The notes under the pieces: generated by a model | What the model was told of the DNA's origin: nothing | Seen by the model: the letters and a program-made list of their open reading frames with translations, nothing else | Database searches by the model: none | Virus record (IMG/VR): IMGVR_UViG_3300031920_000373 | Location: 64,758-101,489 of that record | Strand: one strand, 5' to 3' | Length of the DNA: 36,732 bases | Source: a virus | Program-made: the position numbers and the translations under genes | In this document: piece after piece, positions 35,255 through 36,732 of the stretch | How positions within the stretch are numbered: position 1 is the first letter of the stretch | Layout of the letters: each line of letters starts with the position of its first letter

Positions 35255-36732
35255 TTAACACCCCACCTTTCTTCTTTTTAATGTGGTTAATTTTCTTGCC
35301 ACAAGATATCTCAAGGAATCCATGCAGTGGTCTTCTAAATCAGTATTTGACACAAGACCTCCATTTGCATAGTACATCCCTGCTTGTTCCGTTGTCAAAT
35401 TATATACTGCTTTTTCTTTTTCGGAGGTCCCATCCACACTTGTAACTACAAGTTGCCGAATCTTGTGGTCGTCCTCTAAAGATTTTTTTACATATTGGAC
35501 ATTCTCTTTTAATTTTTTTGGATTCTTCTCTGCATTCAATTGAGCAATATTTCTGTGAGGAACTTGCTGGAGTAAAATCATTACAACAATAAAGGCACGT
35601 GTATTTTCGTTTAAGTGTTTTTTTAACACACTTTTCCATATTAATTCTAAGCTGTTCTTTACCTTTATCAGATTTTCTCCATCGTTTAAGTGTGTCGTGC
35701 AAATCCCCACCTTCTTTAAGTCTTTCTTGCATATGGAATCTTGCGTGATCGCTGCCATGAAGGAGTTCAAGATTTTTACGACTGCAATCATATTTAATTC
35801 TGTTTTTGTGGTGTAATTCATAATCTTTAGGAATTGGTCCAATATAATATTCCCATTTAACTCTGTGCAATAATGTCTCCCCATCAAAAATTTCACTATG
35901 ACCTGGACTGCATTCAAAATATCCTTCATCGACACTAATGAATTTGATTTCTTGGAAATATGTAATGAGTCTTGACATAAAACATCTCCTTCTTTTAATT
36001 CACATAAAGGAACAAGTCCTTTGGAATTTATAAATATCTTGTGATTGTGCTTTCCTTCTAATTGCAAATTGTTTGATAATGTTACACAATAAGTTCTAAC
36101 TTTTCCTGAAATTCCAGACTTAATGACTTTTCTTAAACCTATTGGTGTATGAACTAAATCACCAATTTTAATGTTTTCAATTAGAACCTGTCCTTTTTCA
36201 GTCTTTACAAAAGTGCCTGCAACAAAACAATCAATGTCCTCTGGCTTCTTTTTATCTCTCTGCATGATGGGCAATGTCCTTATATGGTGTTGGGCTTGCG
36301 GAAAGAAGTATAAATGAGGAGACTCCAATTCTTGTCTCTTTGCCGCACCCAACATTTGTCTTATAATTGACCATCCTGCTATCCTTGATCCTGATCCTTT
36401 ATATGCTTTGGTCCAATAACAACCATGTGATTCTAAATTGCTACCAATGGATGTTCCGTCCCTAACATCATAAATGGACGTATCAGCGGGACCAGGAACA
36501 CATCGAGTATTATATTCGGTCATCATATTATTGTCAATAGCTAATACACGGGCGGCGATTTGTTGTGAGGTTGCTTGGTCTCCCTCATTGATAGTTCCAT
36601 TCCATCCATATAATTCATTTGGAACAATTATTGATCCTCTGGGAATATAAGGAACTCTCATTCCACCTAGGTGATTGGGATTGGGTTGTTCTCCGTTTGC
36701 TTCAAATCCATATGTAACTGCCCATGGCTTAG
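35255..36732 (-). CDS. terL: Terminase large subunit, C-terminal nuclease part (5'-truncated, intein-containing)
   Basis: Frame open to the window edge (KPWAVTYG...); GPADTSI, KGSGSRIAGW, IRTLP..RD...PEDID|intein|TDLEDHCMDSLRY. Confidence 0.9.
   Translation of the reverse strand, partial: KPWAVTYGFEANGEQPNPNHLGGMRVPYIPRGSIIVPNELYGWNGTINEGDQATSQQIAARVLAIDNNMMTEYNTRCVPGPADTSIYDVRDGTSIGSNLESHGCYWTKAYKGSGSRIAGWSIIRQMLGAAKRQELESPHLYFFPQAQHHIRTLPIMQRDKKKPEDIDCFVAGTFVKTEKGQVLIENIKIGDLVHTPIGLRKVIKSGISGKVRTYCVTLSNNLQLEGKHNHKIFINSKGLVPLCELKEGDVLCQDSLHISKKSNSLVSMKDILNAVQVIVKFLMGRHYCTELNGNIILDQFLKIMNYTTKTELNMIAVVKILNSFMAAITQDSICKKDLKKVGICTTHLNDGENLIKVKNSLELIWKSVLKKHLNENTRAFIVVMILLQQVPHRNIAQLNAEKNPKKLKENVQYVKKSLEDDHKIRQLVVTSVDGTSEKEKAVYNLTTEQAGMYYANGGLVSNTDLEDHCMDSLRYLVARKLTTLKRRKVGC
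35345..36229 (-). mobile_element. Intein (295 aa) in TerL
   Basis: Block A CFVAGTFVKT...IENIKIGDLV; block B region HNHKIF; block F VYNLTT; terminal VSN with +1 Thr; removal restores PEDIDTDLEDH. Confidence 0.92.
35400..35978 (-). CDS. HNH endonuclease with C-terminal Zn fingers, nested out of frame inside the intein
   Basis: LHRVKWEYYIGPIPKDYELHHKN...NLELL...H...H; CLYC..KYCSIEC and CPIC..TCSYKC; AAGGAG 7 nt before ATG. Confidence 0.88.
   Translation of the reverse strand: MSRLITYFQEIKFISVDEGYFECSPGHSEIFDGETLLHRVKWEYYIGPIPKDYELHHKNRIKYDCSRKNLELLHGSDHARFHMQERLKEGGDLHDTLKRWRKSDKGKEQLRINMEKCVKKTLKRKYTCLYCCNDFTPASSSQKYCSIECREESKKIKRECPICKKIFRGRPQDSATCSYKCGWDLRKRKSSI

Follow-up and report, generated by a model that had tools for sequence, protein, structure and literature searches.

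The terL intein and the reading frame nested within it

We analysed a 36,732-nt stretch of viral DNA (the window) taken from IMG/VR record IMGVR_UViG_3300031920_000373 (record positions 64,758-101,489), in which the gene for the terminase large subunit (terL) carries an intein whose DNA encodes, in a second reading frame, a predicted HNH homing endonuclease. The terL frame was free of stop codons across an insert of 295 codons that runs from a cysteine (codon 36229-36227) to an asparagine ending at 35345 and is followed by a threonine. An open reading frame (ORF) of 192 codons lay wholly inside this insert, on the same strand, between the splicing blocks and at an offset of +2 relative to terL, that is, in the -1 frame. 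An earlier reading made from the letters of this DNA alone (the sequence-only reading) had located the terL frame, the intein and the nested ORF, as well as a Shine-Dalgarno sequence and ATG at the head of the nested ORF and a TGA shortly upstream in the same frame, and all of these were found where it had placed them (Table 1). The same reading had recognised no endonuclease motif in the in-frame centre of the intein; consistent with this, no Pfam family matched the centre of the insert in the terL frame, and no HNH family was matched by any of 54 host-frame ORFs from related loci, which are described below. A blastn comparison of the region with GenBank phages returned no match.

The two ends of the insert had the character of a Hint domain, the protein-splicing fold of inteins. 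In the terL frame the Pfam families Intein_splicing and Hint_2 matched the flanks only, at 27-33.5 bits. An AlphaFold2 model of the intein, built with a 42-sequence alignment, gave pLDDT values (predicted scores in the local distance difference test) of 85-98 (mostly 96-98) for residues 1-88 and 93-98 for residues 260-295, with the centre at 39-72. A Foldseek search with this model retrieved the gp41-1 intein (6qaz; E = 2e-6), and the Mtu RecA mini-intein was matched with a template modelling score (TM-score) of 0.78-0.81 when the score was normalised to the target; the centre of the model was skipped in the alignment. We also asked if the centre, as read in the terL frame, could form a genuine domain; its low pLDDT, a ratio of nonsynonymous to synonymous substitution rates (dN/dS) near 1 and the lack of a Pfam family ruled this out.

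The product of the nested ORF was modelled far more confidently, with a mean pLDDT of 94.7 and no residue below 70. It matched Pfam HNH_3 (PF13392) with a score of 43.9 bits (cut-off 24.8; E = 1.8e-11), and all of the first five HNH homologues matched this family too. The catalytic His/Asn/His set of the HNH_3 His-Me finger was conserved (H56, H57, N69 and H78), and these residues, together with C128, C131, C145 and C149 of the first zinc ribbon, were invariant in 42 HNH sequences. In a profile search against PDB sequences the best solved relative was the homing enzyme I-HmuI, matched weakly (E = 0.025). When the whole HNH model was compared with the PDB by Foldseek, nothing was found at E <= 0.001 and only short matches to the HNH core and to zinc fingers were returned, probably owing to the extended, multi-domain form of the model.

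Table 1. Features of the terL locus, in window positions except where another sequence is named
Feature	Position	Strand	Remarks
terL C-terminal part, 491 codons	35255-36730	-	frame open at 5' end; relatives match Terminase_3 or Terminase_6N
terL N-terminal part, across contig ends	G000:C1:2-2083 (locus L087)	-	
Intein, 295 aa, Cys1 to Asn295, then Thr(+1)	35345-36229	-	
Hint N-lobe, intein residues 1-88	35966-36229	-	AlphaFold2 and Foldseek
Host-frame linker, intein residues 89-259, stop-free, without amino-acid constraint	35453-35965	-	pLDDT, dN/dS, lost periodicity
Hint C-lobe, intein residues 260-295, blocks F and G, last residues VSN	35345-35452	-	pLDDT, structure match
Nested gene for predicted HNH_3 and zinc-ribbon endonuclease, 192 aa and TAA	35400-35978	-	-1 frame relative to terL
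Shine-Dalgarno-like AGGAG, 7 nt upstream of the HNH ATG	35986-35990	-	
HNH-frame TGA stop, 8 codons upstream of the ATG	36000-36002	-	
C-extein, 29 codons and stop, nuclease-domain motif D-x-L-R-Y	35255-35344	-	

The nested layout among relatives and selection on the two frames

Scanning IMG/VR with a profile yielded at least 434 confirmed relatives of the HNH protein, the best 80 of which were retained, and 85 loci encoding an HNH relative were examined for layout. The HNH gene was nested in a much longer ORF at 54 of the 85 loci, with an offset of +2 in every one of these and in frame in none; three further loci looked nested but were cut by a contig end or frameshifted. At one locus (L006:2-1400) the HNH protein was the same as that of L007, but the terL frame was shifted within the Hint N-lobe (ORFs 2-601 and 507-1400); either the assembly is wrong here or this terL is broken. 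Locus L001 (63% identity) had the same layout as the window, and nesting was also found in Acinetobacter phage Highwayman, Rhodobacteraceae phage LS06-2018-MD07 and Tetrasphaera phage TJE1, whose loci are annotated in the databases as 'terminase large subunit' only. Among the 54 host ORFs, 45 matched Intein_splicing (E <= 0.001), 17 Terminase_3 and 16 Terminase_6N, so that by their Pfam matches the hosts are terminases of at least two families. Cys1, the block-B histidine (His63) and Asn295 were invariant in the 54 aligned host ORFs, and the +1 residue was C, S or T in all of them. The start of the HNH gene lay 215-317 nt inside the intein across the nested homologues and its stop usually fell exactly 55 nt short of the intein's end, immediately before blocks F and G. 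The AGGAG motif of the window and its spacing were repeated in L001, L005 and L089.

The phages carrying members of the HNH family infect Proteobacteria, Firmicutes and Actinobacteria, and many of the genes have a clear Shine-Dalgarno (SD) sequence and ATG. In a quick tree of 81 HNH proteins, nested and free-standing forms were strongly clustered without being strictly monophyletic, and well-supported branches forced at least 2-3 changes of state; we therefore make no claim of a single origin for nesting.

Two randomisations were used to estimate how often two frames would stay open by chance. When synonymous codons were shuffled within the ORF, the terL frame was stop-free in 0.49% of 20,000 trials (P = 0.0049); when they were resampled from the codon usage of the phage itself, the mean was 7.4 stops and the frame was stop-free in 0.015% of cases (P(0) = 0.00015), a value close to the estimate of about 1e-4 in the sequence-only reading. 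The frame equivalent to terL contained 3-17 stops in each of 27 clearly free-standing homologues. Thus, the open terL frame is under selection and not a product of chance, given the very small resampling probability and the stops that free-standing homologues carry. The free-standing homologues had about 7 stops in the host-equivalent frame versus about 26 in the other frame, and the third frame held about 20-26 stops in all forms of homologue. The host frame is therefore intrinsically the cheapest to keep open, which could by itself explain why the offset is uniform.

Substitution patterns distinguished the two frames. Mismatches between the window and L001, counted at terL codon positions 1/2/3, were 38/24/76 in the N-extein and 28/16/43 in the Hint N-lobe, and became 36/51/47 in the overlap with the nested ORF; the terL codon periodicity was thus lost across the overlap, where nucleotide divergence was also lower. 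In 19 pairs drawn from across the family, dN/dS over the overlap ranged from 0.13 to 0.45 for the HNH frame and from 0.57 to 1.36 for the host frame, amino-acid identity was higher in the HNH frame in all 19, and mismatches peaked at HNH codon position 3 in 16, the exceptions being window-L005, L001-L005 and L019-L031, two of which belong to the clade of the window itself. The HNH frame is under purifying selection, while the intein frame across the overlap evolves nearly neutrally, which is the outcome that had been predicted from the sequence for a constrained nuclease frame and an intein frame held only to the avoidance of stops.

Probable mobility of the element and the weighing of explanations

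Twenty close terL relatives (63-81% identity in the adjacent N-extein) were compared at the insertion site. The site was uninterrupted in 12 of them, including the closest (L088), and read PEDID^TDLEDH exactly or in close variants (^ marks the junction); six carried an intein at the same site, L091 had an intein nearby, and the contig of L094 ended before the site. In the extein tree the nearest neighbours of every intein-bearing sequence were intein-free, and L100, with the intein, and L101, with an empty site, were sisters with nearly identical exteins. L091, which is on the same contig as L062, carried a related HNH-nested intein at a point six residues beyond that of the window (SEDH^C...VSN^CGDS); different members of the family therefore use neighbouring sites in the TerL nuclease motif. 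Among the loci with the intein at the window's site, three from three metagenomes (L093:1946-2533, L096:3238-3825 and L107:3238-3825) shared one identical intein in which the HNH frame was broken by a stop at codon 43 while the terL frame (780 aa) was still open, and these appear to represent the decaying-endonuclease stage of a homing cycle. The mosaic of empty, occupied and decaying sites fits such a cycle and argues for a nuclease that the phage can do without. Patchy occurrence and precise empty sites lend no more than indirect support to site-specific cleavage, that is, homing, by the HNH protein.

Other arrangements were found among the relatives. At L103:1152-1727 and L106:3157-3732 a free-standing HNH homologue with an AGGAGG SD stood immediately downstream of an intein-free terL. 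At L052:1023-3407 and L015:832-3237 terL was divided into two ORFs with an HNH homologue between them, the first encoding the N-terminal part of TerL and the Hint N-lobe and ending in a stop, and the second, which is short and has a Met start, encoding the Hint C-lobe and the C-terminal part of TerL; the arrangement resembles that of a split intein accompanied by a free-standing endonuclease.

The position of the free-standing homologues, directly downstream of terL in L035, L051, L079, L103 and L106, is what would be expected if the HNH protein were no homing enzyme but served in packaging alongside the terminase, as an HNH protein does in HK97-like cos phages, and merely happened to be stored inside terL. 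This idea was raised in the 2015 brucellaphage paper (PMC4422536) and survives best among the alternatives, yet we consider it unlikely: 10 of the 12 intein-free close relatives had no copy of the HNH gene within the fetched locus, the lineage from three metagenomes keeps terL open behind a premature HNH stop, the distribution is patchy with precise empty sites, and the domain is an HNH_3 whose best solved match, weak as it is, is I-HmuI.

Decay within the clade of the window, together with the weaker selection on the HNH frame there, also raises the prospect that the nested ORF is a recently dead relic, from which no nuclease is made, the intein now persisting only since terL needs it to splice. 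The state of the ORF speaks against this, however: it is intact, all invariant catalytic and zinc-binding residues are kept, its product is confidently modelled, the SD and ATG are retained and the HNH-frame dN/dS, at about 0.42, is still below 1. We therefore give the relic a slim chance.

The invariable placement of the HNH gene in the -1 frame could instead reflect a programmed -1 ribosomal frameshift that makes the nuclease as a fusion to the Hint N-lobe, with no internal initiation, and in the GC-rich phage TJE1 the HNH frame is indeed open from the start of the intein. In 53 of the 54 nested homologues, however, a stop in the HNH frame lay within the intein 3-80 nt upstream of the start codon, which argues against entry by frameshift and extends to the family the earlier remark that the TGA upstream of the window's ATG leaves little room for it. 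The window offers only 21 nt for such an event and no X-XXY-YYZ slippery heptamer was seen there, the ATG and the AGGAG at ideal spacing are conserved in its clade, and the uniform offset is more simply explained by the least stop-prone frame, so that we judge a frameshifted fusion very improbable.

An artefact of assembly or sequencing, in which two compensating indels displaced an in-frame HNH domain, as the sequence-only reading had foreseen by way of refutation, is scarcely credible, because the HNH is in frame in no relative, the offset is identical in 54 independent assemblies, cultured phages included (four counted: Highwayman, LS06-2018-MD07, TJE1 and the relatives of the window), and the avoidance of stops in the host frame is itself selected.

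We conclude, with a probability of roughly 85%, that the element is a mobile terL intein whose homing endonuclease is an overprinted gene and not an in-frame domain; the four alternatives together take up the modest remainder. The composite selfish element with a tolerated nonsense linker that had been suggested from the sequence is supported by nesting at 54 of 85 loci, by selection on the HNH frame alone and by the AlphaFold2 pattern. Under this interpretation, the terL mRNA translated in frame 0 would yield a precursor in which a Hint N-lobe (~88 aa), an unconstrained linker (~170 aa) and a C-lobe (~36 aa) follow one another, the sole requirement on the linker being that it contain no stop codon. 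The Hint lobes would then excise the intein together with the linker and rejoin TerL as PEDID-TDLEDH; the essentiality of terL and the conservation of its frame point to such protein splicing. Ribosomes would start independently at the internal AGGAG and ATG in the -1 frame and produce the 192-aa HNH_3 nuclease with two C-terminal zinc ribbons, which would probably cut the intein-free terL of co-infecting relatives near the insertion site, whereupon repair would copy the whole element.

Several observations weigh against this interpretation. The window has a lysine (Lys60, 36050-36052) at the block-B TxxH, where at least 90% of the family have threonine (His63 of the same motif is invariant), and a serine, not a histidine, precedes the terminal asparagine (end ...VSN^T). 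Because of these two residues, splicing of the window intein may be slower or conditional. Its own Pfam Hint scores were slightly below the curated cut-offs of 28.4 and 35.8. Ribosomes elongating along terL would traverse the internal ribosome-binding site, and a recognisable SD was present in only about half of the nested homologues. In the clade of the window, finally, the two frames differed less than elsewhere (HNH dN/dS 0.42-0.45, host 0.57-0.71), and the HNH may therefore be under relaxed selection there.

The terL gene of this record had further features of its own. Its N-terminal part (G000:C1:2-2083) carried a second intein, a canonical one with an in-frame LAGLIDADG domain (Pfam LAGLIDADG_3, E = 8.5e-11), inserted directly after the Walker-A GGGKG and ending in ...THN^T; L001 also carries this LAGLIDADG intein, and a full terL precursor with both inteins would be about 1,140 aa long. 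The ends of the 101,489-b record (window 36590-36730 and G000:C1:2-142) overlapped by about 141 nt within terL, with 96% amino-acid identity, which makes it probable that the record represents a genome, circular or circularly permuted, that was opened within terL and has a slightly variant terminal repeat. A perfect sigma-70 consensus (TTGACA, 17-nt spacer, TATAAT) was found on the coding strand of the terL N-extein (36509-36537, minus strand). It is the sole perfect one in the 36.7-kb window, with 0.03 expected per window, and lies outside the intein, 280 nt upstream of it and 531 nt upstream of the HNH ATG. Since the L001 peptide differs at this point, the consensus is probably not part of the mobile element.

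Relation to known systems and significance

The sequence-only reading had left it uncertain whether this architecture had been described. It has: inteins with an out-of-frame nuclease are published for the brucellaphage terL (PMC4422536, 2015) and, in 2025-26, for actinophages (bioRxiv 10.1101/2025.01.02.630785) and for dnaX (bioRxiv 10.64898/2026.09.14.751524). The window insert has what defines such a non-canonical intein, namely a complete same-strand homing endonuclease (HEN) ORF inside, a stop-free host frame and no recognisable in-frame HEN. A close parallel is that of Gosselin, Arsenault and Gogarten, who reported inteins of actinophages in which an endonuclease VII-like HEN lies in frame 3, described antisense HENs too, and proposed that the layout arose when a free-standing HEN invaded an intein (bioRxiv 10.1101/2025.01.02.630785). 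Their inteins resemble the present one in occupying phage genes, terL included, in carrying a same-strand HEN in frame 3 (offset +2), placed between the splicing blocks, and in having an in-frame centre without a recognisable fold. The nucleases differ, theirs being endonuclease VII-like (IPR004211 / PF02945) and that of the window an HNH_3 protein with zinc ribbons (Pfam assigns HNH_3 only), and so do the hosts, which are actinophages in their study and phages of Proteobacteria, Firmicutes and Actinobacteria, many with a clear SD and ATG, in the family described here. A tblastn search with three members of this family placed none of their named actinophages among the matches listed.

The HNH ORF of Brucella phage Tb/Pr (Perisivirus) was explicitly reported as nested in a terL intein (PMC4422536), and in NC_019446 gp07/gp08 terL is annotated 'intein present', with the HNH ORF wholly inside, on the same strand and out of frame, as in the window. 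The brucellaphage HNH is, however, at offset +1 and not +2, it is a classical PF01844 protein with its catalytic core at the C-terminus and not an HNH_3, and its intein lies within TerL's N-terminal half, which holds the ATPase, while that of the window is near the TerL nuclease motif. Membership of the same family was rejected for it, since only the 39-residue beta-beta-alpha-metal core could be aligned (hhalign probability 84%) and the offset was +1.

A further comparison is with the fractured genes of Dassa et al. 2009 (PMC2677866), in which the two halves of a split intein are separated by a free-standing endonuclease gene. As in the window, this endonuclease gene has its own start and stop and stands between the coding parts for Hint-N and Hint-C, and the terL genes of L052 and L015 have exactly this split layout. 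The window itself differs from such split inteins in that its host frame is continuous and does not form two ORFs each with half a Hint domain; its intein is therefore contiguous and presumably cis-splicing. The endonucleases of the fractured genes belong to a different family, called VSR-like by Gosselin et al. The ShiLan domain of Arsenault et al. 2025, a hidden out-of-frame HNH in a mycobacteriophage methylase (PMC11855218), likewise lies as an ORF within a stop-free host frame, but, unlike the window, has no Hint domains, no ribosome-binding site and a GTG start; without Hint domains its insert is presumably retained in the protein. The out-of-frame homing endonuclease of the cyanobacterial dnaX intein (bioRxiv 10.64898/2026.09.14.751524) and canonical HNH inteins share with the present element the combination of a Hint domain with a homing endonuclease and a sporadic distribution. 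The dnaX case is cellular and concerns another host gene, whereas the window intein is in a phage terL, and the nuclease of canonical inteins forms a domain within the polypeptide of the intein itself, whereas here it occupies a separate frame.

Because publications already cover this layout in general, the finding contributes a further member and no new principle. A lineage that combines HNH_3 and two zinc ribbons, is encoded in the -1 frame close to the nuclease motif of TerL and occurs in phages of many phyla was not found in the literature searched, and the main interest lies in the size of the family and in the series of states (free-standing, nested, decayed and split) among the relatives. 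The host range of the family extends well past the actinophages for which this layout had been formally described, and the family includes split-intein and decayed-HNH variants. Gene callers miss the nested nucleases and label the host ORF 'terminase large subunit', as in Highwayman, LS06-2018-MD07, TJE1 and phiCDHM19. 

Bacteria and phages rarely have overprinted genes as long as about 190 codons. Here the second frame stays open only because terL is essential, and the window thus provides a clean case, in nature, of selection that acts on nothing but the avoidance of stops. If TerL is spliced as proposed, a Hint core of about 124 aa would tolerate an arbitrary insert of 170 aa, and the compact HNH protein with its two zinc ribbons may, by prediction, be a new site-specific nuclease.

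We suggest tentatively, and at somewhat less than even odds, that the terL-tied HNH_3/zinc-ribbon endonucleases form one large undescribed lineage that shows every stage between free-standing, contiguous and split. The corresponding series, which we put forward as possible but a little short of probable, would run through free-standing (L103, L106), overprinted (the window and at least 53 others), stop-broken (L093, L096, L107) and split (L052, L015) forms. If this is true, the model in which splicing came first and the endonuclease invaded later, as well as the origin of split inteins, would be directly testable from a natural series.

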